Assembly (NCBI GenBank): GCA_964247135.1
Contig: CAXTTL010000122.1
Coordinates: forward strand, 1-14,529
Direction: 5' to 3'
DNA length: 14,529 nt
DNA from: an uncultured Deinococcales bacterium
GTDB taxonomy: Bacteria > Deinococcota > Deinococci > Deinococcales > JAAFIG01
Shown piece after piece: positions 2-14,529 of this stretch. How positions within the stretch are numbered: position 1 is the first letter of the stretch; every line of letters begins with the position of its first letter. The notes below the pieces were generated by a model that had not been told where the DNA came from, searched no databases, and was given only the letters and a program-made list of their open reading frames with translations. Position numbers and translations under genes: made by a program.

Positions 2-412
2 AAAACCTTCCCGACGCCTGCGGTTTGGGAAGAGGGTTTTGTGCCGTTCTCGGCGGTGGCTGCGCCTGTTGCCCATGCGCCCAAACCTGCCGCGCCTGTG
101 GGAGATGCACCTGCTGCGACCTCGAGTGCTGCCCCTGATTCCAGCGCTGCCGCACCTGCCGGTGAAGCGCCCGCCAAAAAGCAACCCAAACGTTGGGTTC
201 CAAAAGACGGTTCTGCGCCTACCGCACCCGCTGCCGAAACATCCTCACCTGTTGCCGAAACCTCTGCACCCATCACACCCGAACCTACACCCGCGCCCGT
301 TGCTGCCGTTGAAACCTCGAGCGCTGCACCACTCGAGACACCCGCATCCGAAGAACCCAAAAACCCGAAAATCAAACGTTGGGTTCCCAAAGAAAAGAAG
401 GAGGGCGAATGA
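2..412 (+). CDS. nuoC: 3' end of a gene, probably NADH-quinone oxidoreductase subunit C, showing only a Pro/Ala-rich C-terminal extension (5'-truncated)
   Basis: Frame is open from base 2 (KTFPTPAVWEEGFVPF...) to TGA 410-412, which overlaps the nuoD ATG (ATGA). The nuoC identity rests only on its position directly upstream of nuoD; no NuoC core domain is in the window. Confidence 0.6.
   Translation, partial: KTFPTPAVWEEGFVPFSAVAAPVAHAPKPAAPVGDAPAATSSAAPDSSAAAPAGEAPAKKQPKRWVPKDGSAPTAPAAETSSPVAETSAPITPEPTPAPVAAVETSSAAPLETPASEEPKNPKIKRWVPKEKKEGE
347..393 (+). repeat. 47-nt segment shared with 3908-3954 (44/47 identical), encoding SEEPKNPKIKRW[V/I]PK at the C-termini of two different nuo genes
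   Basis: tccgaagaacccaaaaaCccgaaaatcaaacgttggGttccCaaaga versus tccgaagaacccaaaaaTccgaaaatcaaacgttggAttccGaaaga, compared by eye. Confidence 0.9.
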
Positions 413-1548
413 CCGCCGTTCTCAACCCCACCGCGCTCGAGACTGTTCAGGGGCGCACCGATGAAATGCTGATCAACCTCGGACCACAGCATCCCGCCAC
501 GCACGGCGTTTTGAAGGTCGTGCTCGGCGTGGACGGCGAGCGGGTCACCAGGGCGATTCCGCACATCGGTTTTTTGCACCGCAACCACGAGAAGCTCGAG
601 GAAGTCCGCACCTACAGCATGTGCATTCCGTACACGGATCGCATGGATTACGTTTCTGGAATGCAGAATGAGTTGCCGCTGTGCTTGGCGGTCGAGGACA
701 TGCTCGGCATCGAAGTCCCCGAGCGCAGCAAGTACATTCGCACCATTTTGTTTGAACTCTCGAGAATCGCGTCTCACTTGGTTTGGATTGGCACGTACAT
801 GCTCGACTTGGGCGCGATCACGCCGTTCTTGTATGCCTTCCGCGACCGCGAGATGATTTTGGACATTATTGAAAAGACGGCTGGGGCGCGTTTGCTGCCG
901 AATTATTTCACCTTCGGTGGCGTGCGCCGCGATCATCATCCCGCGATGCTCGAGGATATTCTCGAGTTTTTAAAATTCTTTGAAACCAAATTGCCAGAGT
1001 ACGAGGCGCTGACGATTGATGCGCCCGTGTTTCAGGCGCGTACCGTCGGTGTCGGTGTGCTCGACCCGCAGGTGGCGCTCAATCACGGTGTCACAGGTCC
1101 AAACTTGCGCGGTTCGGGAATTCCTTGGGATTTGCGCAAAGACGAACCTTATGATGCCTACCCGTTCATCGATTTCGAGGTTTGTGTCGAACTCGGTTGC
1201 GATGCCTACAGCCGCTCGAGGGCGCGTTTCCGCGAGTTTTACGAAAGTATCAAAATCATTCGTCAAGCGATTGCGCAATACCCCAAAGTTGGTCCAACGC
1301 TGCCCAAACTGCCGCGCCTCAAACCAGTCGCTGGCGTCGAACGTTACCGTGCCGCCGAGATTTCTCGAGGGCAATTGGGCGTGTACTTGATTTCGGACGG
1401 CACCGAAAAACCGTTCCGCTCCAAGCACCGCAGTCCGAGTTTCTGCACGCTTCAAGCGTTGCAGGACATGTTTGTCGGTTCCAAATTCTCCGATGCGATT
1501 GCCATTCTGGGCAGCATTGACATTGTGCTCGGGGAGGTAGACCGATGA
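409..1548 (+). CDS. nuoD: NADH-quinone oxidoreductase subunit D (49-kDa family, quinone-binding)
   Basis: Motifs NLGPQHPATHGVL, IGFLHRNHEK, YTDRMDY, ELSRIASHL, MLDLGA, C-terminal GSIDIVLGEVDR. Start placed at ATG 409 (AAGGAGG upstream, ATGA overlap) rather than 379. Confidence 0.97.
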   Translation: MTAVLNPTALETVQGRTDEMLINLGPQHPATHGVLKVVLGVDGERVTRAIPHIGFLHRNHEKLEEVRTYSMCIPYTDRMDYVSGMQNELPLCLAVEDMLGIEVPERSKYIRTILFELSRIASHLVWIGTYMLDLGAITPFLYAFRDREMILDIIEKTAGARLLPNYFTFGGVRRDHHPAMLEDILEFLKFFETKLPEYEALTIDAPVFQARTVGVGVLDPQVALNHGVTGPNLRGSGIPWDLRKDEPYDAYPFIDFEVCVELGCDAYSRSRARFREFYESIKIIRQAIAQYPKVGPTLPKLPRLKPVAGVERYRAAEISRGQLGVYLISDGTEKPFRSKHRSPSFCTLQALQDMFVGSKFSDAIAILGSIDIVLGEVDR

Positions 1549-2963
1549 GTTTGTATGAAAACAAAGACCCACGAATGCCGCTCGAGCGGGTTGCCATTCC
1601 TGAAAACAAGCATTTCAAGTTGCGCAATAAATATCACGCGCTTCTGAACAACCACAATCCAAAAGGCAATTTGTTGTCTGCCATTTTTGGTTATGTGTCC
1701 TTGTTCGGCACGACTTTGCTGGTCTTGGCACTCACCTATCAAGGTTTGCCTGCGTTGCTCGAGGCTCTGGGTGCGGCAAAAAACACTTTCTGGTACAACT
1801 TGGTTTACGGTTTGCTCGGACCTGTTTTGATGTTCTTGTTTGTGGCAGTTGTGGCATTGATTAACATTTTGATGTTGCGCAAATACCTGGCAAAAGTTCA
1901 AAACCGTTACGGACCACTGCATCACGGACCTGCGGGTGTGCTGCAAACCGTGTTTGACGCGCTCAAACTGGTGTCCAAAGAAGATTTCAGCCCTGGCATG
2001 GTTGAAGAAACGATTTTCACGCTCGCGCCGGTGATCGTGTTCGTTTCGGCGTTCATCATGATTGCTGTGATGCCGTTTGCGCCAGGTTGGGTCTTCTCGA
2101 ACGTGGATTCTGGAGCGCTGTTTATCATCGCCGCAGGGACGCTCGGTGGGTACGGCGTGCTGCTGGCGGGTTGGAGCATGAACAACAAGTACGGTTTGAT
2201 GGGTGGACTTCGTGCCGCCGCGCAACTCGTCAGTTACGAAGTGCCGCTTTCAATCGCGCTGCTTTCGGTGGTCGTTTATAACGGCTCGATGAACTTGACC
2301 GATATTGTCCAAGCACAATCGACCGTCTGGAACGTCTTCCCACTGTTTATTCCGTTTGTGATTTACCTGATTGCGGGTCTTGCCGAAATCAAGATGACCC
2401 CGTTTGACCTTCCAGAAGCCGAGTCCGAGCTTGTTGCCGGTTTCAACACCGAATACGGCGGAATGCGTTTCGGATTTTTCTTTGTCGCCGAATTTGCAGA
2501 GTTGTACCTGCTGCCCGCGATTCTCGCCATCTTCTTTTTGGGCGGCTGGCACGCGCCGAGCATTCCAATTCCCTACATTGGCGAGTTGGTCATTCACGCT
2601 GGCAGCGCTCCTGCGAATCCCTCGAGCTTCCAAGATTGGCTTCAAGTGGCATTCGGTCCAGGAGGTCTGTTACTGAACTTGCAATATGGGTTCTGGTCGC
2701 TTCTCAAGGGTGCGGCTGGCGTTTATTTTTACATGTGGATTCGTGCCACACTGCCGCGCTTTCGTGACGATCAACTGATGGAACTGTGCTGGAAGGGTTT
2801 GATTCCGCTGTCCCTGATCGGTTTGCTGCTGGCTGCCGTCTCGAGGCTCTACCCAGCAGTTGGGCAAATCCTTTCGTATGTCACGGCAATACCGTTGTTG
2901 TTGTTTGTTGTTTCTCGAGCGTTTGGTCTTAAACTTCCGAGTCCAAAAAAGGAGCTTGCATGA
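1545..2963 (+). CDS. nuoH: NADH-quinone oxidoreductase subunit H with N- and C-terminal extensions (472 aa)
   Basis: QNRYGP...GPAGVLQ..FDALKL..KE, NNKYGLMGGLRAAAQLVSYE, PFDLPEAESELVAGFNTEY, WIRATLPRFR. GGAGG upstream and ATGA overlap with nuoD. Confidence 0.96.
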   Translation: MSLYENKDPRMPLERVAIPENKHFKLRNKYHALLNNHNPKGNLLSAIFGYVSLFGTTLLVLALTYQGLPALLEALGAAKNTFWYNLVYGLLGPVLMFLFVAVVALINILMLRKYLAKVQNRYGPLHHGPAGVLQTVFDALKLVSKEDFSPGMVEETIFTLAPVIVFVSAFIMIAVMPFAPGWVFSNVDSGALFIIAAGTLGGYGVLLAGWSMNNKYGLMGGLRAAAQLVSYEVPLSIALLSVVVYNGSMNLTDIVQAQSTVWNVFPLFIPFVIYLIAGLAEIKMTPFDLPEAESELVAGFNTEYGGMRFGFFFVAEFAELYLLPAILAIFFLGGWHAPSIPIPYIGELVIHAGSAPANPSSFQDWLQVAFGPGGLLLNLQYGFWSLLKGAAGVYFYMWIRATLPRFRDDQLMELCWKGLIPLSLIGLLLAAVSRLYPAVGQILSYVTAIPLLLFVVSRAFGLKLPSPKKELA

Positions 2964-3967
2964 GTTTGCTCAAAGACATTTGGAGTGCGGTTTCTGGCGT
3001 GGGCAAGGGCATGGAAAAGACCTACGACGAGCAATTTCAACCCGTGTTCACCGATCTGTACCCGTTTGAACTGCCAAAACTTCCGCCCGTCAGCGTGCAA
3101 TCGCTGGCACTGATTCAAAACGAGGACGGCTCTGACCGTTGCGTGTCGTGCCTGGCGTGCGAGAAGGTCTGCCCGAGCCAGGTCATCACCATCGAACGCA
3201 AACGCAACCCTGCGGGCAAAGGTTTTGTGCTCGAGCGTTTTGACATTGATTTGGTCAACTGCATGTACTGTGCCGCCTGCGTCGAATCTTGCCCCGCACA
3301 GGCGATTGTCACGATTCAGGATTTTGAGATGAGCACCCCAAATTTGCAGAGTTTGAAAGCCGACAAGGAATTTTTGGATTTGCAAGGCTTGCGTGCCGCG
3401 CAGTGGTACAGCCCCAAAGTCGGCGTGGAATACCGCGTTGAAACTCCAGAGAACCCAACGCACGGCAAGATCGTCAAAGCGCCAGTCGAGGATCAACCTG
3501 GTGGAATGCAAGAGATGGAAAAAGCGCGTTTGGCTGCGCTCGAGCCTGCCAAACCTGTCGAGGCTAAAACTGCACCTGTCGAATCTGTAGGGGCGCCGCT
3601 TGCTGCGCCCGCCTCTGCACCCGCCAAGCCCGAACCTACATCTGCCGCTGTTGCTCCTGCCGTTGAAACCTCGAGCAACGCGAATCCGAAGATCAAACGG
3701 TTCGTTCCAAAAGATGCCGCCGTACCTGCGGTTGAAACACCTGCGACTGCTGTTGCCGAAACCGCAAAACTCGAGACTCCTACAACACCTGAATCCGTAG
3801 CGGCGCCGCTTGCTGCACCCACCACACCCGAAACGCCACCCGCGCCCGTTGCTGAGGCGGCAAAACCTGTCGAAACTGCGCCTGCCGAAACCTCGAGCGC
3901 ACCCGTTTCCGAAGAACCCAAAAATCCGAAAATCAAACGTTGGATTCCGAAAGACAAGGGGGAATAA
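2960..3967 (+). CDS. nuoI: NADH-quinone oxidoreductase subunit I (2x[4Fe-4S]) with a long low-complexity C-terminal tail
   Basis: CVSCLACEKVCP and CMYCAACVESCP motifs, FDID..C and DFEMS segments, position between nuoH and nuoJ, ATGA overlap. Confidence 0.93.
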   Translation: MSLLKDIWSAVSGVGKGMEKTYDEQFQPVFTDLYPFELPKLPPVSVQSLALIQNEDGSDRCVSCLACEKVCPSQVITIERKRNPAGKGFVLERFDIDLVNCMYCAACVESCPAQAIVTIQDFEMSTPNLQSLKADKEFLDLQGLRAAQWYSPKVGVEYRVETPENPTHGKIVKAPVEDQPGGMQEMEKARLAALEPAKPVEAKTAPVESVGAPLAAPASAPAKPEPTSAAVAPAVETSSNANPKIKRFVPKDAAVPAVETPATAVAETAKLETPTTPESVAAPLAAPTTPETPPAPVAEAAKPVETAPAETSSAPVSEEPKNPKIKRWIPKDKGE

Positions 3968-3970
3968 ATC

Positions 3971-4606
3971 ATGGTTAATCCTGTTTTCTTCTACCTGATC
4001 TCGCTGGCGATTATTTCGACCGCGATTTACGCGGTCAGCTCGAGCAAGCTTCTCAATGCCGCGCTCGCGTTGGCGTTGTCGTTCTTTTCGATTGGCATGT
4101 TGTATTTCATGCTCGGCGCACCGTTTTTGGGCATGTTGCAATTTTTGATCAACGCGGGCGCAATTCCGATTGTGACCGTGTTTATTATTTTCATGACGCA
4201 ATCTCGAGTTTTAAAACTGAAATCTCCCGCCACGGCGGTCACGGCAATTGGCGCGATGGTGATGCTGGCGATTGGTTTTGTCTTGTACATTTCTCGTTCA
4301 GGCTCGAGCCTCAACGGTCAGAACGTCACACCCGTCAGTGCGGCGATGCTGGGCGAGAAATTGCTGGGTTCGAGTGAAACCACGGGCAGGGTTGGCACCT
4401 TGTTTGCCTTCGAGATTGCCAGCGTCTTGTTGCTGGTGGCGATGGTCGGCGCAATTATTTTAACCAAACGCGAGGGTGAAACCATCAAAGGCAACGTCGG
4501 CGTACTTTCTGAAGTCGAAAAAAGCGTCACCCAAGGCGAACTCGAGACTCCTGCCCGAGCAGCCGATGCTGTCATTCCCGAAACTCGAGAGAAGGTGGTT
4601 GCCTGA
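3971..4606 (+). CDS. nuoJ: NADH-quinone oxidoreductase subunit J
   Basis: Hydrophobic protein with LGAPFLGMLQFLINAGAI and FEIASVLLLVAMVGAI motifs; operon position. Confidence 0.92.
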   Translation: MVNPVFFYLISLAIISTAIYAVSSSKLLNAALALALSFFSIGMLYFMLGAPFLGMLQFLINAGAIPIVTVFIIFMTQSRVLKLKSPATAVTAIGAMVMLAIGFVLYISRSGSSLNGQNVTPVSAAMLGEKLLGSSETTGRVGTLFAFEIASVLLLVAMVGAIILTKREGETIKGNVGVLSEVEKSVTQGELETPARAADAVIPETREKVVA

Positions 4607-4956
4607 TGGACGGTATTCTTTCAACCATCCGCTCGTTTGCCAACAACGGCATCAGCTTGCAACAGTTTTTGATTCTGGGCAGTTTGTTGTTTCTGGTTGG
4701 CATTTACGGTGTTTTGACGCGCCGTAATTTGATCGCCATCCTGATGAGCGTGGAAATCATGCTCAATGCTGCGATGCTCAATTTTGTGGCGGTCAGCGCC
4801 TACACCGACACGGTGAACATCAACGGGCATTTGTTCGCGCTGTTTATCGTGGCGATTGCCGCCGCCGAAGTTGCGGTGGGTTTGGCGATTTTCATTAACG
4901 TTTTCCGTTCTAAGGGTGGCGTGCTCACCGATGACCTGATGGAGATGAAACAATGA
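4606..4956 (+). CDS. nuoK: NADH-quinone oxidoreductase subunit K
   Basis: GIYGVLTRRNLIAILMSVEIMLNA and AAAEVAVGLAI, with both conserved Glu present. TGATG overlap with nuoJ. Confidence 0.96.
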   Translation: MDGILSTIRSFANNGISLQQFLILGSLLFLVGIYGVLTRRNLIAILMSVEIMLNAAMLNFVAVSAYTDTVNINGHLFALFIVAIAAAEVAVGLAIFINVFRSKGGVLTDDLMEMKQ

Positions 4957-4995: not shown

Positions 4996-7176
4996 ATGGT
5001 TGATCTTGCCATTTTGATTCCCGTGCTGCCAGCGTTGGGCTGGTTGATCATTTCGATTTTCTCCAAGTCGCTTGGCAGCAAAGGCAGTGCTTGGCTTGCC
5101 ACGACTTTAATGGCGCTTAGTGCGGCAATTGCGATTGGTTTGTTCGTCGAAATCAGTAGCGCTGCGCCAAACTGGAAAGCCGAACCACTCGAGCAGTTGT
5201 ACAACCTCGAGCACAAAGCCAAAACGACACAAGCCGCAAAACCAGCCGAAACGCCAGCCGTCGAAGGGGTCGAACCAATCTCGGCATTGACCCAAGAGGC
5301 ACAAGAAAAAGCGAATTTGCTCCGTGATGCCTTGCCCTCGAGCAACCGTGCGCTCAGCGGTTTTCCTTTCGTGCGCGAATGGTCTTGGCTCTCGATCAAG
5401 GGCGAGGCTGGCTTGCCGTTCGGATTTTACTTTGACCAAACCGCCGGCATTGTGGTCTTGATGGTTTCGGTCGTCGCATTTTTGATTCACCTGTTCAGTG
5501 TGGGGTACATGGCTGGCGAGGAACGTTACCCAACTTTCTTTGCGTATATCAACCTGTTTGCCGCCGCGATGCTGGCGATGGTCATGGCAAAAAATTTATT
5601 CCATGTGCTCTTGTTCTGGGAAATCATGGGCGTCATGAGTTACCTCTTGATCGGTTTTTTCTACAAAAAGAAAACCGCCCAGCAAGCCATGAAAAAAGCT
5701 TTCATGACCGTGCGGGTTGGCGATCTGGCGTTCATGGCGGGTTTGTTCTGGCTGTACTCGAGCTTCAAAACCCTGGACATTCCCACGATTCTCGAGGCTG
5801 GCGCGAGCGGTGAACTCTTGAAGGTCTTGGGCGTGACGGCGGCTGGCGGCATCGGTTTGCTGCTGTTTATCGCCGCGATGGGCAAGAGCGCCCAATTCCC
5901 GCTGCACGTCTGGCTTGCCGACGCGATGGAAGGTCCAACACCAGTCAGCGCCATGATTCACGCCGCCACGATGGTCGCGGCTGGTGTGTACTTGGTGGCT
6001 CGAGCCTACCCGATTCTCGAGGTGGGGCATGTGCTGCCGTTTGTGGCGCTTATTGGTGGGTTTACCGCAATTTTCGCTGCAAGCATGGCTCCCGCCCAAG
6101 CGGATGCGAAGAAGATTATGGCGTTCAGTACGCTCTCGCAATTGGGTTACATGTTCCTGTCGCTCGGGGCGTTTGGTTACACGGCGGCGCTGTTTCACCT
6201 GCTGACCCACGCTTTTTTCAAGGCGTTGTTGTTCCTTGGCTCGGGCAGCATGATTCACGGTTCGGGAACGCAAGATATTTTTGAGATGGACGAACTGGGC
6301 AAATACCAGAAATGGACGCTCGGCACGGTCTGGGTCGGTGCCCTTTCACTGATGGGCGCACCGCTGTTTGCGGGTTTCTGGTCCAAAGATGAAATTCTTC
6401 ACGCCGTGCAAAGCGCCGGCGGACTGTACTGGATTTTGTGGCTGATGGGCGTCATCACCGCCGTTCTGACCGCGTTTTACTCCACCCGCATGATGATTAT
6501 TGCGTTTTACAAACCCAAGACCGCCAGTCCCTGGGCTGCCGCACCTTGGAACAACGAGGGCGAACCAACCCTGAACATGACCAAAGCCGAACTCGAGGAT
6601 CAAAAAGCGCACGAGCACGGACATCACGTCAGCGATCATCCACACGAGAGCGGTCCTGAAATGATTATTCCGTTGGTGCTGCTGGCGACGATGGCAATGG
6701 TGATGGGTTTTGTCGGGTCCCCGTTTGCCAACGGTTGGTTCCAGCGCTTTGTCTACTTCGGCGAAGCTCCAGAACTCGTGCCACTCGGCGCGGCTGTTCC
6801 AGGGTTCATTCTCTCGGTCTTGCTGGTCGCGGCTGGCGCGGGAGCGTCGTACATGCTCTACGGCGGCGCTCGAGATCATACCAAACAGATCGCGCCAATC
6901 TGGTTAACCCGTTTGTTGCAGCGTCGGTACTTCATCGACGACTTTTACTATCACGGTTTTGTCCGCCTTGCCGAGGACATTCAATATCCGCTCGCCTGGT
7001 TTGACAAAAACGTTGTTGACCGCATCGTGGACGGCTTTGGCATTGTCACGGGCGCAGTCGGCGACACGTTGCGCCGTGCGCAATCGGGCGCGGTCGGCTT
7101 GTACGCTTGGTTGATGGTCGTGGGCGGCGCGGTTATCGCGCTGGCGTTTGCCTTCGCGCAAGGGGGCAACAAATGA
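4996..7176 (+). CDS. nuoL: NADH-quinone oxidoreductase subunit L (antiporter-like)
   Basis: FWEIMGVMSYLLIGF, RVGD, GKSAQFPLHVWLADAMEGPTPVSAMIHAATMVAAG, HLLTHAFFKALLFL, GFWSKDEI, HPHES. RBS AGGAGG upstream. Confidence 0.97.
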   Translation: MVDLAILIPVLPALGWLIISIFSKSLGSKGSAWLATTLMALSAAIAIGLFVEISSAAPNWKAEPLEQLYNLEHKAKTTQAAKPAETPAVEGVEPISALTQEAQEKANLLRDALPSSNRALSGFPFVREWSWLSIKGEAGLPFGFYFDQTAGIVVLMVSVVAFLIHLFSVGYMAGEERYPTFFAYINLFAAAMLAMVMAKNLFHVLLFWEIMGVMSYLLIGFFYKKKTAQQAMKKAFMTVRVGDLAFMAGLFWLYSSFKTLDIPTILEAGASGELLKVLGVTAAGGIGLLLFIAAMGKSAQFPLHVWLADAMEGPTPVSAMIHAATMVAAGVYLVARAYPILEVGHVLPFVALIGGFTAIFAASMAPAQADAKKIMAFSTLSQLGYMFLSLGAFGYTAALFHLLTHAFFKALLFLGSGSMIHGSGTQDIFEMDELGKYQKWTLGTVWVGALSLMGAPLFAGFWSKDEILHAVQSAGGLYWILWLMGVITAVLTAFYSTRMMIIAFYKPKTASPWAAAPWNNEGEPTLNMTKAELEDQKAHEHGHHVSDHPHESGPEMIIPLVLLATMAMVMGFVGSPFANGWFQRFVYFGEAPELVPLGAAVPGFILSVLLVAAGAGASYMLYGGARDHTKQIAPIWLTRLLQRRYFIDDFYYHGFVRLAEDIQYPLAWFDKNVVDRIVDGFGIVTGAVGDTLRRAQSGAVGLYAWLMVVGGAVIALAFAFAQGGNK

Positions 7177-8729
7177 TTACGCTGCTTATTCTTATTCCTG
7201 CCATCGCCGCCATTATTGCCGCAGCAGGCGACAACAAAGCCCAACTCGCCAAACGCGTTGCCGTGGCAGCCAGTCTGGTCTGCACGATTATTTCTGGCGC
7301 AATGTACTTGGGCTTAAACCTGAACGGCGGTTTGCAGTTCCTCGAGAAAGTGCCGTGGATGCCGCAGGTTGGTGTCTCGTACTTTGTCGCGTTGGACGGC
7401 ATCAGCTTGCCGTTTGTGGTCTTAACCTCCTTGCTGACGTTGGTCAGTGTGCTTGCCAGTTGGGATGAAGACCGCAAAAGCTTCTTCGCCCTGTTCTTGG
7501 TGATGCAATCGGCTTTAACGGGCGTGTTTGCCAGCCTCGATTTGATTTTGTTCTTCGTTTTCTGGGAAGTTGTTTTGATCCCAATGTTCTTCATCATCGG
7601 CGTCTGGGGTTACGAAAACCGTCGCTATGCCGCCGTGAAATTCGTGATCTTCTCGCTGACTGGTTCAGTCTTGATGCTGGTCGGAATCCTCGCCCTCGCG
7701 TTTGGAATCTCGAGCAGTGCAGGCATTCCGCTCACGTTCGATTACAGCATCCTGCGCGATCACGTTTCGCTCGTCTCGAGCCTGCCTGGTGTTGGCTTGA
7801 TGTTCTGGGGCATTATCGTGGCGTTCCTGATTAAACTTCCCGCCTTCCCAGTCCATACCTGGTTGCCGCACGCGCACACCGAGGCGCCCACCGCCGGTTC
7901 GATCATGTTGGCGGGTGTGATGCTCAAAATGGGAGGTTACGGCATTCTGCGCTTTAACCTCGGTTTGTTCCCGCAACAGATGCAGGAATATCAGGTGGCG
8001 CTGTCCATCCTTGCCACCGTCGGCGTGATTTACGGCGCGTACTGCGCGATGGCTCAAAAAGACCTCAAGCGCATGGTCGCGTACTCGAGCGTCAACCACA
8101 TGGGTTACGTGCTGTTGGGGATTGTCAGCCTGACCCCGATGGGCATTCACGGTGCGGTCTATCAAATGGTCGCGCACGGTCTGATCACGGGTCTGATGTT
8201 CATGATGGTCGGTTTCTTAAGCCACCGCACCCACACCCGAGAGATTGCCAAAATGACGGGCATGTACGCCGCGATGCCGATGCTCGGCGCGATCATGTGG
8301 GCAGCTTTCCTGGGCGGTCTTGGAGTGCCTGGCATGGCAGGTTTCATCGGCGAATTCACGGCGCTGTCGGGTGCCGTGCAAAACCCTGTGACCGCGCCGT
8401 ATGCCTACATCAGTTTGCTCGGCATCATCATCACCGCAGGTTTTATCCTCTACGCGATTCAACGCGTCTTGCTGGGTCGCGCCCCAGGTTCGGACAATCA
8501 CGCGCACGACGATCACGCCCCAAGCTCGAGCGTGGCGATGGTCAAACACGAAGCCACCAGCCATGCTTTCCACGATCTCAGCTTCCTCGAGATTGCTGCC
8601 GCCGCGCCGCTTTTGGTGCTGGCAATCGTGCTTGGTCTGTATCCCAACGCCCTCTCGCCCTGGATTGATTCGAGCGCCCAAGCGCTCTTGAACACTGTCA
8701 AGGTTGTCGCATTGGGAGTCTCGAGATGA
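7173..8729 (+). CDS. nuoM: NADH-quinone oxidoreductase subunit M
   Basis: LDGISL, FFVFWEVVLIPMFFIIG, KLPAFPVHTWLPHAHTEAPT, LKMGGYG, AYSSVNHMG, GFIGEF. Start placed at ATG 7173 (ATGA overlap with the nuoL stop). Confidence 0.97.
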   Translation: MITLLILIPAIAAIIAAAGDNKAQLAKRVAVAASLVCTIISGAMYLGLNLNGGLQFLEKVPWMPQVGVSYFVALDGISLPFVVLTSLLTLVSVLASWDEDRKSFFALFLVMQSALTGVFASLDLILFFVFWEVVLIPMFFIIGVWGYENRRYAAVKFVIFSLTGSVLMLVGILALAFGISSSAGIPLTFDYSILRDHVSLVSSLPGVGLMFWGIIVAFLIKLPAFPVHTWLPHAHTEAPTAGSIMLAGVMLKMGGYGILRFNLGLFPQQMQEYQVALSILATVGVIYGAYCAMAQKDLKRMVAYSSVNHMGYVLLGIVSLTPMGIHGAVYQMVAHGLITGLMFMMVGFLSHRTHTREIAKMTGMYAAMPMLGAIMWAAFLGGLGVPGMAGFIGEFTALSGAVQNPVTAPYAYISLLGIIITAGFILYAIQRVLLGRAPGSDNHAHDDHAPSSSVAMVKHEATSHAFHDLSFLEIAAAAPLLVLAIVLGLYPNALSPWIDSSAQALLNTVKVVALGVSR

Positions 8730-10201
8730 TTGTTGCGATTGTTGTTCTGCTGACCATCTCGGGTATTGTGACCTTCGTTGCGGCGGCGGGCAAAAACGCC
8801 GAATTGCCAAATGCAGGACAGGTTTTTGGTGGTGCGACCCTTGCCGTCTTCACCATCATGATGCTGCTGGCAGTTTTGGGCTGGAACGATCAAAACATCT
8901 ATTACGGCGTATTAAAGGCAGGTCCAATCGCCAGCCTCGGTACGCTCATCATGGGCTTGATTGGTTTGCTGGTCACGGGCGGCGTGATGTCCAACCCCGA
9001 AAAGTACCAGTCGGGCATCGGCGAATTTTTTGGTTTTATCATCTTCACGATTCTGGGCGGCGTGCTGATGGTCAGCACCAACAACCTGATCGTGCTTTAC
9101 ATCGGCATCGAACTCTCGAGTTACAGCACCTACATCATGGTCGGGTACTACCGCGATGACCGTTTCAGCAACGAAGCCGCCAGCAAATACTTTTTGCTCG
9201 GCGCGGTTGCCAGCGCCTTCTTGCTGTTCGGCATGAGTCTGGTTTATGCCGCCGCCACCTCGAGTGGCATTGTTAACCTCAATTACGAAGAGATCGGTCG
9301 CGCCTTGGCTGGCGTGGCTGGCAGTCCCGTCTCGAGCTTCCCGCTGGTCTGGCTTGGTCTCGCCATGATGCTGGTCGGTTTTGGTTTCAAACTTGCGCTC
9401 GTGCCGTTTCACTCTTGGACGCCAGATGCCTACCAGGGCGCTCCGAGCATGGTCGCGGGTCTCTTGAGCGTCGGACCCAAAGCGGGCGTCGTCATCGCCC
9501 TCTCAAGCCTTCTGACGAGCACTTTCGTGATTCAACCCGCGCTGCTCGACGGCTGGAAAAACGCCTTCATGTGGCTCAGTATCCTGTCCATGACCGTCGG
9601 CAACCTCCAAGCGCTTCAACAAACCAACATCAAACGAATGCTTGGTTACTCGAGCATCGCGCAACTGGGGTACATCGTGATCGGTGTCGCCGTCGGCTCG
9701 AGTGCCGGCACGGCGGCGTTAATTCTGTACATCACCGGTTATGCCATCACCAACATTGGCGCGTTCTTGCTCGTCTCGAGCCTGCGCGACGCTGGCGTGG
9801 GCGAAGAGATTTCGGATTACGCCGGACTCGTGAAACGCAGCCCAACCGCAGGTATCTTGATGGCAGGATTCTTCATGGGCTTGGCGGGCGTGCCGCTCTT
9901 GGCGGGTTTCCTCGGCAAGTTCTTGCTGTTCAAAAGCGCCGTCGATGCCAGCCTGGTGCCGCTTGCGATTGTCGCGGTGCTCAACACCGTTCCGGCTTAT
10001 TACTATTACTTCCGCGTCATCATCAACTCGGTCTTGCTCGAGCCTAAAGACGCTCGACCCATCGAACTGAATCCAACCGCCTTGGCGGTGCTGAGCTTCG
10101 CGCTGTTGGGCGTGGTGTTCTTGGGCGTCTACCCAACCCCAGTGCTCGACCTGATTAACAGCGCCGTTAAAACCATGCCGTTGTTCACCGCTTCAAGATA
10201 A
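8726..10201 (+). CDS. nuoN: NADH-quinone oxidoreductase subunit N
   Basis: LYIGIELSS, NEAASKYFLLG, GFKLALVPFHSWTPDAYQGAP, KRMLGYSSI, LAGVPLLAGFLGKF. ATGA overlap. Confidence 0.96.
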   Translation: MIVAIVVLLTISGIVTFVAAAGKNAELPNAGQVFGGATLAVFTIMMLLAVLGWNDQNIYYGVLKAGPIASLGTLIMGLIGLLVTGGVMSNPEKYQSGIGEFFGFIIFTILGGVLMVSTNNLIVLYIGIELSSYSTYIMVGYYRDDRFSNEAASKYFLLGAVASAFLLFGMSLVYAAATSSGIVNLNYEEIGRALAGVAGSPVSSFPLVWLGLAMMLVGFGFKLALVPFHSWTPDAYQGAPSMVAGLLSVGPKAGVVIALSSLLTSTFVIQPALLDGWKNAFMWLSILSMTVGNLQALQQTNIKRMLGYSSIAQLGYIVIGVAVGSSAGTAALILYITGYAITNIGAFLLVSSLRDAGVGEEISDYAGLVKRSPTAGILMAGFFMGLAGVPLLAGFLGKFLLFKSAVDASLVPLAIVAVLNTVPAYYYYFRVIINSVLLEPKDARPIELNPTALAVLSFALLGVVFLGVYPTPVLDLINSAVKTMPLFTASR

Positions 10202-10385: not shown

Positions 10386-11825
10386 TCAATTCAGCGTCCG
10401 TCCGCCGCTCGAGCCGAGCAAGGCATTGGCTTTTTGAATGTAACCCTCGAGCGTGACCGCCCATTCATCCGAAGGCTCGAGGTGCGGCAGGGCGATTTGC
10501 GCGTGGTACAAAATGCGGCTCGGTTCGCGCCAACCGAGTTGCACGAGCGTGTCGGCAATCATCTGGTGCGCCAGAACCCAGTCGCGGCTGGCTTCTGGCG
10601 CAAACTCGAGCACGCGGTTGTAATGCTCGAGCGCGTCGTCGAGGCGGTAGTATTCGTAGGCAATATTGGCGAGCAACAAACTGGCTGGAATGATCGCGCC
10701 CGCCTCGAGCGCGAGGGTGGCTTGGCGTTCGGTGGCGTCAAAATCGCCCAATCGGTACTCGAGTTCGGCAAGGTCGGCGAGGACTTCGGCTTTGTAGGGG
10801 TATTCGCTGTCAAGCAGCGCGGCGTTGAGGCTGCTTCTGGATTCTTCGGGCAGTCCGGCATCCATTTGCGCCAAACCCATTTCGTGCAGCGCGTAAGACT
10901 TGTCGGCGGCAGGTGCAAGTTGCACCGCCCGAGAGAACGCCGCCAGCGCCCCGGGCATGTCCGCCATCGCCGCCAGCGATTGCCCGTGCACGAGTGCCAC
11001 GCCAAAACTCGGTTCGCCGACTTCATCTTCGAGCGCTCGAGCCAGTTCCGCGCGTTCTCTGGCGAGGCTGGGGTTGTCCAGTGCCAGGTGCGCCCGGGCT
11101 TCCAAATGCAAACGGCTGGCGGCTTCCAGCGCTGGTTCGAGGTTGTTGTACAACCCTGCAACTTGCTCGAGGGTGCTCAGGGCTTCAAAGGGTTCTTCAA
11201 GTTCGAGAAGCATCGCGGCTTGATCCATCAGCAAAGCGGCTTTGTCGGTGCCTGTGGTCAAATCTGCGCCGTGACTGTATGCCTGTTCCGCCTCGCGCCA
11301 ACGCGAAAGTCCCTCGAGCGCCCCACCGCGCCACGACCAGTAACGCCAACGCAAAAACGCGGGCAGTTCCTCGAGCACAATGCCCTCAAGCAATTCGAGC
11401 GCGGTTTCGGGTTCACCCAGCGTCACCAAGGCGCTGACCGCATGAAATTTCGCCACGCTCGAGCCGCCGCGCGATTGTGCCGCCAACTCGAGCGCCCGCA
11501 TTTTGCGCGGTTCGGCATCATTGATGCGTTCACCCAATTCAAACGCTTCCAACTCGAGGGTGAACGCGATGTTCGCCGCCCGCAGCGCCATGTACGTCGG
11601 GTCTTGGCGCAAGAGCGGATTGCTCAAGACCGCGTTCGACAAACTCTGCGACGAACCCTCAATGCCTTCACGTCCGTAGAGCGTGTAAATGCCCGCCATC
11701 TCGAGGTCGCACAAGGCGGCAATGCGCGGGTCACGACTGCTTCTCGCGCCTTTCTCGAGCGTTTCAAAGGCAGTTTCAAAGTCGCCTTTTTCCAAGGCTT
11801 GATGGGCGGTTTGCAGGATATCCAA
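10386..11825 (-). CDS. Tetratricopeptide-repeat (TPR) helical protein, function unknown
   Basis: 479-aa Ala/Leu/Glu-rich ORF with repeated TPR-like helix pairs (e.g. GGALEGLSRWREAEQAYSHG, LAELEYRLGDFDAT, LANIAYEYYRLDDALEHYNRVL). TTG start is uncertain. Confidence 0.85.
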   Translation of the reverse strand: MDILQTAHQALEKGDFETAFETLEKGARSSRDPRIAALCDLEMAGIYTLYGREGIEGSSQSLSNAVLSNPLLRQDPTYMALRAANIAFTLELEAFELGERINDAEPRKMRALELAAQSRGGSSVAKFHAVSALVTLGEPETALELLEGIVLEELPAFLRWRYWSWRGGALEGLSRWREAEQAYSHGADLTTGTDKAALLMDQAAMLLELEEPFEALSTLEQVAGLYNNLEPALEAASRLHLEARAHLALDNPSLARERAELARALEDEVGEPSFGVALVHGQSLAAMADMPGALAAFSRAVQLAPAADKSYALHEMGLAQMDAGLPEESRSSLNAALLDSEYPYKAEVLADLAELEYRLGDFDATERQATLALEAGAIIPASLLLANIAYEYYRLDDALEHYNRVLEFAPEASRDWVLAHQMIADTLVQLGWREPSRILYHAQIALPHLEPSDEWAVTLEGYIQKANALLGSSGGRTLN

Positions 11826-11834
11826 AGCGTGTCA

Positions 11835-11840
11835 AGCATA
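11835..11840 (-). promoter_or_regulatory. Candidate -10 element (TATGCT) for a leaderless or very-short-leader TPR transcript
   Basis: A TANNNT hexamer lies 9 nt upstream of the TTG start and there is no obvious Shine-Dalgarno sequence. Leaderless transcripts are common in Deinococcus-Thermus. Confidence 0.35.
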
Positions 11841-11956
11841 ACCCGAGGAGGCGGGGATTGATTGAATTTGGTTTAAGGTTTGGCAAGTTTAGAAAATGAA
11901 GCTCGAGATCAGGCAATTCGGAGCTTGCTGACTGTTTTGCCGACCCTTTCGGTTTG

Positions 11957-12186
11957 AGCGACCCAAACCCGTCAGCGATGCCGCCCGCCAGGTGCGTTTT
12001 GGCATCAAGAAGGTGCTGCTTTCAGGGTCAAGAAGCGACCCAAGCCCGTCAGCGACCATGCCCGTTAGGTGCATTTTATGGTCAAGATAGGTGCTGCTTT
12101 CAGGGTCAAGAAGCGACCCAAGCCCGTCAGGTGCTGCTTTCAGGGTCAAGAAGCGCGTCAACGGATATGCAAGGTGCTGTAGAAGA
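11957..12186. repeat. Nested and tandem array of a ~37-40 nt hairpin unit (5 clear copies plus 1 degenerate)
   Basis: Intact unit 12112-12151 (AGCGACCCAAGCCCGTC AGGTGCTGCTTTCAGGGTCAAGA). Copies at 11957-12033 and 12034-12111 are each interrupted by a variant unit (11974-12010, 12051-12088). Degenerate copy at 12152-12186. Confidence 0.9.
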
Positions 12187-12243
12187 ATTAAATGGAATCC
12201 AAATAATTTTCTGACCATTCCTGAAACTCGAGCGGCACAAACC

Positions 12244-12281
12244 AAAAGTGGTGAACGCCAATAACGCGTTCACCACTTTTT
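12244..12281. terminator. Intrinsic terminator downstream of ilvE, potentially bidirectional
   Basis: Perfect 15-bp inverted repeat AAAAGTGGTGAACGC (12244-12258) / GCGTTCACCACTTTT (12266-12280) with a 7-nt loop and T-runs on both strands, about 25 nt past the ilvE stop. Confidence 0.9.
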
Positions 12282-12304
12282 AAATCTCGAGATTGGATTA
12301 CAAA

Positions 12305-13267
12305 TCAATTCGCGTAGGTTAACCAATGCTCGTAGCCTTTGGCTTGCCCACTGGTCGCCTCGAGGTAACGCTTTCTGATCTCGAGCGAGATTTTACCCGC
12401 CACGCCATTGCCGATCTTGCGGAAATCGATCTCGCTGACTGGGGTGACTTCGGCGGCGGTGCCGGTCATGAAGACCTCTTTGGCGCAGTACAGTTCCTCG
12501 CGGGTTGCCATCGTTTCGACAACCTCCAAGCCCATGTCCTTGCAAATCTGAATGACAGAGTCGCGGGTGATGCCGGTCAAATTGACGCTTCTCGAGATGG
12601 CGTAGACCGTGTTCTTGTTGATGAAAAAGAAATTCTCGCCCGTGCCCTCGGCAATAAAGCCGTTCTGGTCGAGCAGCAAACCCTCGTCAAAACCCGCCGA
12701 CACCGCGTCCATGCGAGCCAGGGCGCTGTTGACGTAATTGCCGCCCGCTTTGGCTTTGCCAGGCATGGCGCCTGCGGGCAGGCGCGTCCAGGCGGTGGTC
12801 ATGAGCCGAGCGCCCTTTTGAATGGCTTCATCGCCCAGGTACGCGCCCCATTCCCAACCCGCGACCATCGCCAGCACTGGGCAGGGCAGGGGATTGACGC
12901 CCAAAGTCTGACCGCCGCGCCACACCAGCGGACGCAAATAACATGACTTATAATTGTTGGCGCGAATCACCTCGAGATGGGCGTGTGAGATTTCTTCCTG
13001 GGAGAACGGAATGGGCATTCGCAAAATATGGGCGCTGTCGAAAAGGCGCTGCGTGTGATCGCCCAGCCGAAAGACTGCCGCGCCACGGTCGGTCTCGTAA
13101 GCCCGTACACCCTCGAAAACGCTGGTGCCGTAATGGAGGGCGTGGGTCAAGACCGAAACGGTGGCTTGTTCTTGCGGCACGAGCTTGCCGTTAAACCAGA
13201 TCATGCCCGCCTTGATGCCGGTGTCGCCGCCAACACTGCCTTTGGGTGCCTCAACTGTCTGTGTCAT
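12305..13267 (-). CDS. ilvE: Branched-chain amino acid aminotransferase (PLP fold type IV)
   Basis: HALHYGTSVFEGVRAY, YLRPLV, KAKAGGNY (PLP lysine), EGTGENFF, GITRDSV, EVFMTGTAAEVTPV. Start placed at ATG 13267 behind an AAGGAG RBS (13272-13277). Confidence 0.96.
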   Translation of the reverse strand: MTQTVEAPKGSVGGDTGIKAGMIWFNGKLVPQEQATVSVLTHALHYGTSVFEGVRAYETDRGAAVFRLGDHTQRLFDSAHILRMPIPFSQEEISHAHLEVIRANNYKSCYLRPLVWRGGQTLGVNPLPCPVLAMVAGWEWGAYLGDEAIQKGARLMTTAWTRLPAGAMPGKAKAGGNYVNSALARMDAVSAGFDEGLLLDQNGFIAEGTGENFFFINKNTVYAISRSVNLTGITRDSVIQICKDMGLEVVETMATREELYCAKEVFMTGTAAEVTPVSEIDFRKIGNGVAGKISLEIRKRYLEATSGQAKGYEHWLTYAN

Positions 13268-13308
13268 AAAACTCCTTGAGATGGCTCGAGCCATGTTGAA
13301 AGCGCAGT

Positions 13309-14529
13309 TTACCGTTTTTCGATTAGAGCGGTGGCATCACCAACGGGCAAGGGCGGCGCGAAAACATAACCCTGGGCTTGGTCGCAACCCAGAAAATGCA
13401 GTTTCTCGAGTTGATACTGGGTTTCGACCCCCTCGGCGAGCACTTCCAGACCGAGGTTGTGCGCCAGGGCGATGATGGTTTGCACCAGGGGAATGGCGTC
13501 GTTGCGGGTGGCTGAAATGCCGGAGGTAAATGCCCGATCCACTTTCAGCAAGTCCAGCGGCAGGCGTTGCAAACGCACCAAGTTGGAATAACCCGTGCCG
13601 AAATCGTCGATTGAAAACCGCACGCCCAGTTTACGCAGTTCAAACATCAGGTTTTCTGGGGTGGTGTCCCTGGACATGACCTGGGATTCGGTGACCTCGA
13701 GTTCAAGGTGTTTGGGAGCCAAACCGGTGCGCTCGAGGACTTTTGAGACATTCTCAACCAAATCGGTGTTCTCCAGTTGGACCGCCGAGAGGTTGACCGC
13801 AATTTTAAAATCGCGCCCTGCCTTGTTCCACTTGGCGGTCTGCAAACACGCCGTCTCGAGCACCTGCGCCCCGAGTTGCACGATCAAACCGCTGGCTTCG
13901 GCAAGCCCGATAAACCGGTCCGGCAGCACCAAACCGCGCTCTGGGTGATGCCAACGCACCAGGGCTTCAAAACCGATCAGGCGCTCCTCGCCCAAATGAA
14001 ATTGCGGTTGGTAAAAGACTTCAAACTCGTCACGCTCGAGCGCCCGACGCAACTGGGCTTCAAATTCCAGAATCTCGAGTTCGTGATGGTCGTGGTCGCT
14101 GGCAAAAAACCGCGCCCGTCCGCGCCCGGTTTCTTTGGCGCGGAACATGGCAAGGTCAGCCCGTGCGATCAGATCGGTGGTGGTTTCGGCATCGCCTGGG
14201 AAGTTCGCCACGCCCATGCAGGCGGAAATCGAAACCTCGTGACCGTTGAGGTAAAACGGTTGATTGAAACTCTCGAGCACCTTGCGGGTCACTCGGGTCA
14301 CGTACTCGCGGTCGCCGAGCATCAGAATGCCGAACTCGTCACCGCCCATTCGCGCCAGCAAATCCGTGCTGCGCAAACAGGTTTTCAGGCGTTTGGTGAC
14401 AATCCCCAGCAGCGCATCGCCCGCGTCGTGACCCAGGGTATCGTTGACCAGTTTAAAACGGTCCAAATCGATAAACGCCAGCGACAAAGGCTCGAGCCTG
14501 TGACGGGTGTTGTTGATGACCGTTTCGAT
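13309..14529 (-). CDS. GGDEF-EAL diguanylate cyclase/phosphodiesterase (5'-truncated)
   Basis: Frame open to the window edge. DLDRFKLVNDTLGHDAGD, RSTD I-site five residues before an intact GGDEF, then EALVRW, DDFGTGYS, KVDRAF, AEGVE and QGY. Confidence 0.96.
   Translation of the reverse strand: METVINNTRHRLEPLSLAFIDLDRFKLVNDTLGHDAGDALLGIVTKRLKTCLRSTDLLARMGGDEFGILMLGDREYVTRVTRKVLESFNQPFYLNGHEVSISACMGVANFPGDAETTTDLIARADLAMFRAKETGRGRARFFASDHDHHELEILEFEAQLRRALERDEFEVFYQPQFHLGEERLIGFEALVRWHHPERGLVLPDRFIGLAEASGLIVQLGAQVLETACLQTAKWNKAGRDFKIAVNLSAVQLENTDLVENVSKVLERTGLAPKHLELEVTESQVMSRDTTPENLMFELRKLGVRFSIDDFGTGYSNLVRLQRLPLDLLKVDRAFTSGISATRNDAIPLVQTIIALAHNLGLEVLAEGVETQYQLEKLHFLGCDQAQGYVFAPPLPVGDATALIEKR

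Follow-up and report, generated by a model that had tools for sequence, protein, structure and literature searches.

Basic-tryptophan motifs on disordered NuoC and NuoI tails of a headless complex I in an uncultured Deinococcales family, with a possible role in ferredoxin capture

The locus

We analysed a stretch of 14,529 nucleotides (the window) that begins at the start of contig C122 in the 5.09-Mb genome of an uncultured Deinococcales bacterium (G000) and that carries most of an operon for a headless complex I, that is, one whose operon has no nuoE, nuoF or nuoG. Two of its subunits, NuoC and NuoI, end in long disordered tails, and each tail bears a short basic motif built around an aromatic residue, once internally and once at its tip. 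The parts concerned are these:

2..412, plus strand: 3' part of nuoC, comprising the end of the conserved segment and then a ~120-residue Pro/Ala/Ser/Glu disordered tail that matches full NuoC in same-genus genomes
179..205, plus strand: NuoC internal basic-Trp motif KQPKRWVPK, with equivalents in relatives
362..391, plus strand: NuoC terminal motif NPKIKRWVPK (KIKRWVPK at 368-391), kept at NuoC C-termini across five genera
2960..3967, plus strand: nuoI, with two 4Fe-4S motifs (C61-C111), an ordered extension (residues 148-194) and a disordered tail (195-335)
3542..3964, plus strand: NuoI disordered Ala/Pro/Glu/Thr tail of 141 residues, predicted local distance difference test score (pLDDT) mostly below 50, no secondary structure
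3689..3712, plus strand: NuoI internal motif KIKRFVPK
3929..3952, plus strand: NuoI terminal motif KIKRWIPK

The original prediction, made from the letters of the window alone, had placed four such motifs in two subunits. All four lie in frame at those places, and they are the sole matches to KR[WF][VI]PK in G000, in a search of 100,213 stop-to-stop frames 30 residues or longer. Shuffling the NuoI tail 100,000 times yielded no strict match and 12 shuffles with two occurrences of [KR][KR][WF]. A low-complexity scan of G000 returned 15 segments, with the motif tip on NuoI alone. The NuoC and NuoI of the genome's canonical, NuoEFG-containing complex are without the motif, in agreement with the prediction.

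The tails had further been called homologous, and the one on NuoI was put at about 185 residues. As DNA they are indeed alike: the terminal 64 nucleotides are 88% identical, and linker pieces of 42 and 20 nucleotides are 90% and 100% identical. The length needs correction. In an AlphaFold2 model built on a 67-sequence alignment, NuoI residues 195-335 are unstructured (pLDDT mostly below 50) while residues 148-194 form ordered strands and a helix at pLDDT 85-89; since this ordered segment is conserved in tail-less orthologues too, the true tail is about 141 residues long, and a tail starting right after the Fe-S domain is ruled out. For a NuoC orthologue, the corresponding model is ordered up to about residue 178 and disordered from about 179. 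An ESM Atlas search with NuoI residues 236-335 gave no usable match, Foldseek and PDB sequence searches matched the Fe-S core of NuoI only, and a search of sequencing runs listed no RNA run and only small DNA shares.

The remaining subunit genes follow nuoC contiguously, as assigned by NCBIfam, in the order nuoD, H, I, J, K, L, M, N:

409..1548, plus strand: nuoD (NCBIfam NuoD)
1545..2963, plus strand: nuoH, N-terminally extended by an extra hydrophobic segment, an extension common to the whole headless clade
3971..4606, plus strand: nuoJ, whose C-terminal extension (about nt 4466-4603) is conserved within the motif-bearing family
4606-4956, plus strand: nuoK (NCBIfam)
4996-7176, plus strand: nuoL (NCBIfam)
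7173-8729, plus strand: nuoM, single copy (NCBIfam)
8726-10201, plus strand: nuoN (NCBIfam)

Because the window begins at the contig start, the core of nuoC is missing from it; nuoA, nuoB and the nuoC core of the headless operon are unassembled in G000. In a related genome (G003) the upstream DNA matches the starts of both C122 and contig C269, which points to an assembly gap of about 2.1 kb. The same tail ends a Complex1_30kDa NuoC between nuoB and nuoD in five of five same-genus genomes, so that, judged by these matches, the upstream gene is, as predicted, nuoC, here of an 11-subunit (nuoA-D, H-N) operon. The order A-B-C-D-H-I(-J-K-L-M-N), without E, F and G, recurs in orthologous loci long enough to show it; the genes flanking the headless operon are not conserved across genera.

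The predicted absence of the N-module holds for the operon but not for the cell. A second, complete canonical nuoA-N operon including E, F and G lies on contig C20 of G000, and NuoF is present in 16 of 18 genomes of the motif-bearing family (f1). That the genome lacks NuoEFG is therefore ruled out. Across the phylum the headless type is patchy: among sampled genomes it occurs in 5/5 of f1, 10/12 of family f4, 9/69 of f2, 0/103 of f3 and 0/61 of f5, and in a larger f1 set all 18 genomes carry it.

Conservation of the motif among relatives

We compared 120 NuoI homologues (87 long-tailed, 31 short-tailed and 2 that could not be split) with the best 120 of 139 NuoC homologues, 109 of them long-tailed. 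The motif is present in 79 of the 87 long NuoI tails and 96 of the 109 long NuoC tails. Five of the eight NuoI exceptions end in a helix-hairpin-helix (HhH) domain followed by a run of lysines, and the other three appear, on our reading, to be frameshifted; the 13 NuoC exceptions are of a more distant type, nearly all with HhH-like ends.

Over 340 instances the residue frequencies are P(77%)-[KR](65%)-x-x-K(74%)-I(64%)-K(99%)-R(86%)-W(90%)/F(9%)-x-P(85%)-K(70%), where the percentages for the aromatic and the adjacent basic residues are partly circular because the search expression demanded them, and those at the Pro and Ile positions are not. The family consensus is P-[KR]-x-x-K-[IV]-K-[RK]-[WF]-x-P. 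The motif is thus conserved in orthologues, as had been expected, but not in the form first given: the strict KR[WF][VI]PK is largely that of the window genus and occurs in only 24 of 118 NuoI and 20 of 120 NuoC homologues. Residues after the tryptophan vary widely (EPK, VPK, GEP, NPG, RKD), and a tail holds between zero and three copies, usually two. Genera g3 and g5 have an extra conserved segment of about 40 residues before the NuoI linker (about residues 195-235), together with a distinct internal form of the motif.

The motif occurs in a single uncultured Deinococcales family. A DNA scan of the GTDB species collection for the exact motif gave 54 matches, 24 of which are NuoC or NuoI ends in Deinococcales/Deinococcota. 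The other 30 (26 in frames shorter than 100 codons, two in frames of 137-146 codons and two inside long open reading frames without a Pro/Ala linker) look like chance matches, and the exact terminal form looks unused elsewhere. A loose K-x-K-x-W pattern matched the DNA of five family genomes 109 times, near the reversed-pattern control, and among the 30 of these loci that were returned the motif stands in a tail for NuoC and NuoI only.

A FastTree phylogeny of 116 NuoI cores puts the tails in one clade (support 0.88), within which the tail is missing from homologue P0076 and from the partial P0083. The linkers are 25% Ala and 17% Pro with less than 1% aromatics; distances from core to motif and from motif to motif run from 42 to 141 residues, and the net charge of the 12-residue motif stays at +3 to +5 despite this variation in spacing. 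KIKRW is kept between genera while 53% of comparable codons differ synonymously, and the turnover of the linkers has left K-x-K-R-W in place across five genera and deeper branches. Since the motif is kept as linkers vary and accept insertions, it appears to be a short element under selection inside a drifting spacer.

Basic residues beside a tryptophan are a classic pattern at membrane interfaces, and a first linker of 45-100 residues could reach the membrane, so that the motifs might anchor at the interface to anionic lipids and thereby gather complexes or fix their place in the membrane. We hold this to be very doubtful: there is a single aromatic per motif, the flanks carry Glu and Pro, no amphipathic helix is predicted, and an integral membrane complex has no need of an extra anchor.

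Similarity of the NuoC and NuoI tips

The NuoC and NuoI motifs shift together by genus. We compared the 14 terminal codons of 28 tails, a comparison in which genome-wide codon bias is not controlled, and found synonymous differences of 0.29 between both genes of a genome, 0.32 between the genes within a genus and 0.53-0.54 between genera; for the NuoI core the same comparison gives 0.30 and 0.53. The pattern suggests either copying between tails or co-evolution with a shared partner.

The linkers have also taken up insertions, in the form of a repetitive extragenic palindromic (REP) element:

3587..3610, plus strand: GTAG-type REP palindrome, in frame in the NuoI linker, with a degenerate second copy at 3797-3820

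Its pattern has 110 matches in the genome as against 11 in a shuffled genome, with 41 identical copies, and 34 of 240 homologues carry a peptide similar to the REP-encoded one. Copies of the family lie in frame in linkers of several G000 proteins, among them NuoI and, on contig C110, an RNase R-like protein. Intragenic GTAG REPs are already described in the available text of PMC3733652, and the window element resembles that family in its GTAG-tagged short palindrome, its roughly 100 genomic copies and its in-frame occurrence in some genes; its assignment to the family is a candidate one, and it would explain linker insertions only, not the motif. A repeat related to another palindromic element, which is in frame in some tails, lies at window 11889-12245 between a TPR gene and ilvE.

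Taken alone, the small within-genus tip difference, the 88% DNA identity, the in-frame REP insertions and the loss of the tail in P0076 inside a tailed clade would fit tails that are weakly functional appendages (for solubility, spacing or protease shielding) and that are alike through repeated nuoC-nuoI DNA copying. Copying, however, accounts for the likeness of the two genes and not for the conservation of K-x-K-R-W across genera and deeper branches, and we regard such appendages as highly improbable.

The concerted change is equally what would be expected if both tails had a common partner, and the motif could then be a linear motif that fits a pocket in a folded protein: the complex's own Q-module, the NuoJ extension, PFOR or KorAB, or a borrowed NuoEFG module. 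The invariance of Trp/Phe, the prolines conserved at -8 and +2 relative to it, and the co-occurrence of the conserved NuoJ C-terminal extension in the same family all speak for such a pocket. Yet the residues that follow the tryptophan and the copy number are loosely kept, the motif is undocked on its own subunit in single-chain AlphaFold2 models, and DNA copying could also give concerted change, so that we consider a pocket ligand unlikely.

Helix-hairpin-helix tails in relatives

An HhH domain (HHH_5/DUF4332-like) stands beside or instead of the motif in 16 of the 87 long NuoI tails and in at least 25 of the 109 long NuoC tails. NuoC tails of family f2 usually have this domain, often without the motif. 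In G000 the same HhH subtype ends ribosomal protein bL19 (L162:1978-2229, contig C44) and a second protein at the end of contig C14. Pfam finds no HhH match in the window tails, and the motif lies outside that domain. A search with the HhH profile returned 22,262 representatives at E<=0.001, mostly tandem-HhH proteins; Pfam applied to the 98 shortest of 150 HhH proteins named almost no partner domains.

That HhH joins or replaces the motif in relatives, and sits on bL19, points to an explanation absent from the original prediction, namely that motif and HhH are interchangeable polyanion-binding tips which tether the complex or hold it close to RNA or DNA, or which link its assembly with translation. 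Basic residues with a tryptophan would also suit base stacking. On the other side, HhH is a promiscuous domain that often occurs in tandem, the window tails have none, and none of G000's ribosomal or nucleic-acid proteins was found to carry the motif; we judge binding to nucleic acid or the ribosome to be somewhat unlikely. The stronger form, in which motif and HhH hold a respiratory proton pump in physical contact with RNA, ribosomes or the nucleoid, no such link being described for complex I, seems to us quite unlikely.

A probable ferredoxin dock and its possible donors

The core of the headless enzyme offers a different lead, in the segment between the two iron-sulfur clusters of NuoI:

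3176..3259, plus strand: NuoI inter-cluster hairpin, basic (R80, K81, R82, K87), as long as the hairpin with which cyanobacterial NdhI binds ferredoxin

At the sequence level the hairpin aligns with that of NdhI without a gap and places K87 opposite one of its lysines. Across 67 sequences, tail-less ones included, neither R80 nor K87 varies, and the complete 4Fe-4S motifs (C61/64/67/71 and C101/104/107/111) do not vary either. NuoD has cysteines only at 72, 92, 259, 264 and 346, with no terminal pair and hence no NiFe cysteine pairs, and its best families are NuoD. The loop of about 25 residues found in canonical NuoD is absent, and a short basic segment stands in its place (K300, R303, K305; about nt 1300-1326), of which K305 aligns with an NdhH lysine at 320/322 in alignments with canonical NuoD and NdhH. 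The lost loop would presumably have faced NuoG and the N-module. In methanogens a lysine-rich FpoI tail has reportedly been proposed to bind ferredoxin, a passage that our literature search did not find.

In cyanobacterial NDH-1L, according to the available text of PMC7021789 and PMC6992706, ferredoxin touches NdhI at K86/K89/K91 and NdhH at K315/K321, with the interface widened by small basic clusters that belong to NdhV and NdhO. From spacing we infer that the NuoI and NuoD residues above may correspond to these contacts. The headless core, with or without tails, looks from such alignments as though it has the features of a ferredoxin dock.

Candidate donors are at hand. G000 encodes PFOR, a KorAB-type enzyme and two acidic 7Fe ferredoxins, and a 2-oxoacid:ferredoxin oxidoreductase is found in 28 of 29 headless carriers. 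In G003 and G001 the headless operon adjoins a third 7Fe ferredoxin paralogue with a CRP/FNR gene behind a TTGA-N6-TCAA box, and contig C269 of G000 begins inside that crp. The paralogue, usually followed by a CRP/FNR gene and preceded by the palindrome, recurs across the family at differing sites (L037:15447-16420, L038, L193-L200). Donation of electrons by ferredoxin has been proposed for the Desulfitobacterium enzyme, with PFOR (PMC11238625), and for an Fpo that lacks FpoF (PMC4153887), as far as the available parts of both sources go.

What the tails may do

We tentatively favour a role for the tails as accessory arms that capture ferredoxin through multivalent electrostatic contacts and so stand in for NdhV/NdhO-type clusters. 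The second, 11-subunit complex I would take electrons from a reduced 7Fe ferredoxin, itself reduced by PFOR and the KorAB-type enzyme; the ferredoxin would dock at the basic site formed by the NuoI hairpin and NuoD, and the electrons would pass to quinone with proton pumping. In this family NuoC and NuoI would have gained long disordered tails, usually with two motifs of about +4 each, so that four flexible positive patches might ring the peripheral arm at its open top, where their weak binding of the acidic ferredoxin would concentrate it locally and deliver it to the NuoI dock. The acidic donor of the original prediction is in this respect plausible, given the 7Fe ferredoxins, PFOR, KorAB and the basic core dock; the partner itself we can only infer.

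Several observations weigh against this view. A near-invariant tryptophan is superfluous for purely electrostatic capture, and the linkers that carry the patches are acidic overall (net charge about 0 to -6). Headless orthologues in f4 (10/12 genomes) and f2 (9/69) have a short NuoI without the motif, which means that the tails are accessory and dispensable for this enzyme type. The motif as a general donor dock of headless complexes is ruled out by the same orthologues. Five NuoI tails carry HhH and poly-Lys in place of the motif, and bL19 bears the same HhH. Oxidoreductases of the donor type also occur in 20 of 32 genomes without a headless operon. In G013 and G014 the ferredoxin-crp module sits near canonical nuoN, and in six further genomes it lies at other sites, so that its adjacency to the headless operon is weak support. 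NuoEFG is present in the same cells and could be borrowed. Finally, the analogy with the flexible NdhS tail, on which the prediction leaned, is contested: a "fly-casting" role for NdhS has been proposed, as relayed by a review (PMC13249358), while in the structure of NDH-1L with ferredoxin no contact between NdhS and ferredoxin is seen (PMC7021789).

Relation to known systems

On gene content the enzyme belongs to the 11-subunit complex I class. Like the 11-subunit enzymes described in the available text of PMC3144371 and, for Desulfitobacterium, PMC11238625, it has nuoA-D and H-N without E, F and G and lacks NiFe cysteines, and for them too PFOR ferredoxin is a proposed donor. Unlike them, it shares its cells with a complete 14-subunit complex, the Deinococcales lineage being one that apparently respires, and its NuoC and NuoI both end in disordered tails in which a motif is repeated. 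A lineage-specific NuoC extension on a headless complex has a precedent in Bacillaceae, where Moparthi and Hägerhäll suggested that it contacts a partner (PMC3144371, available text). That extension is N-terminal and on NuoC only, whereas ours is C-terminal, on two subunits and carries a basic-Trp motif, a distinction drawn from the published description rather than from sequence; the orthologous Deinococcales NuoC begins at the core domain with no N-terminal extension.

With cyanobacterial NDH-1L, in so far as the accessible text of PMC7021789, PMC6992706 and PMC13249358 describes it, the shared features are a basic NuoI hairpin of equal length, an aligned NuoD lysine and extra basic patches near the top of the arm. 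Here, by contrast, the operon has no NdhS/V/O-type genes, the patches sit on disordered tails of 45-240 residues belonging to core subunits, and the donor would be a 7Fe rather than a 2Fe-2S ferredoxin. None of NdhL-Q, S and V is encoded in the operon; a genome-wide search for them was not made. The short Nqo2 and ND6 extensions of Paracoccus (PMC11522691, available text) are unrelated in form to the Deinococcales tails. Our literature search, which covered few subscription journals and no supplements, found no account of this operon, of C-terminal NuoC/NuoI tails that carry a motif, or of complex I subunits with HhH tails. The tails thus represent a real, conserved and apparently undescribed variant, and the mechanism given above is a proposal.

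The electron source of complex I without an N-module is still open for most bacteria. This Deinococcales lineage provides a clean natural comparison, in which the same headless enzyme occurs without tails, with HhH tails or with motif tails, beside a normal complex I, and the conserved 12-residue motif is a ready bait for finding a partner. The reach of such work is limited, in that the motif is restricted to a single uncultured family and sister lineages do without it. If ferredoxin capture is true, the tails would be a convergent, built-in substitute for the accessory subunits with which photosynthetic complex I binds ferredoxin.

Further features of the locus

The NuoH extension (window 1545-1810) measures 50-90 residues in the headless clade and combines the extra hydrophobic segment with a basic soluble start. 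The NuoJ C-terminal extension (window 4466-4603), about 45 residues long, is conserved in the motif-bearing family; f2 has a shorter one that differs from it, and f4 has none. A long, variable insertion follows the second helix of NuoL, and loops rich in His occur in both NuoL and NuoM (window about 5170-5370, 6590-6660 and 8500-8570). In the canonical nuo operon (C20:1-17622) many unrelated genes, by appearance Uma2-like genes, an ATPase pair and lipoproteins, lie between the subunit genes. Downstream of nuoN, on the minus strand at window 10386-14529, are ordinary neighbours: a TPR protein, the branched-chain aminotransferase IlvE and a GGDEF-EAL protein.

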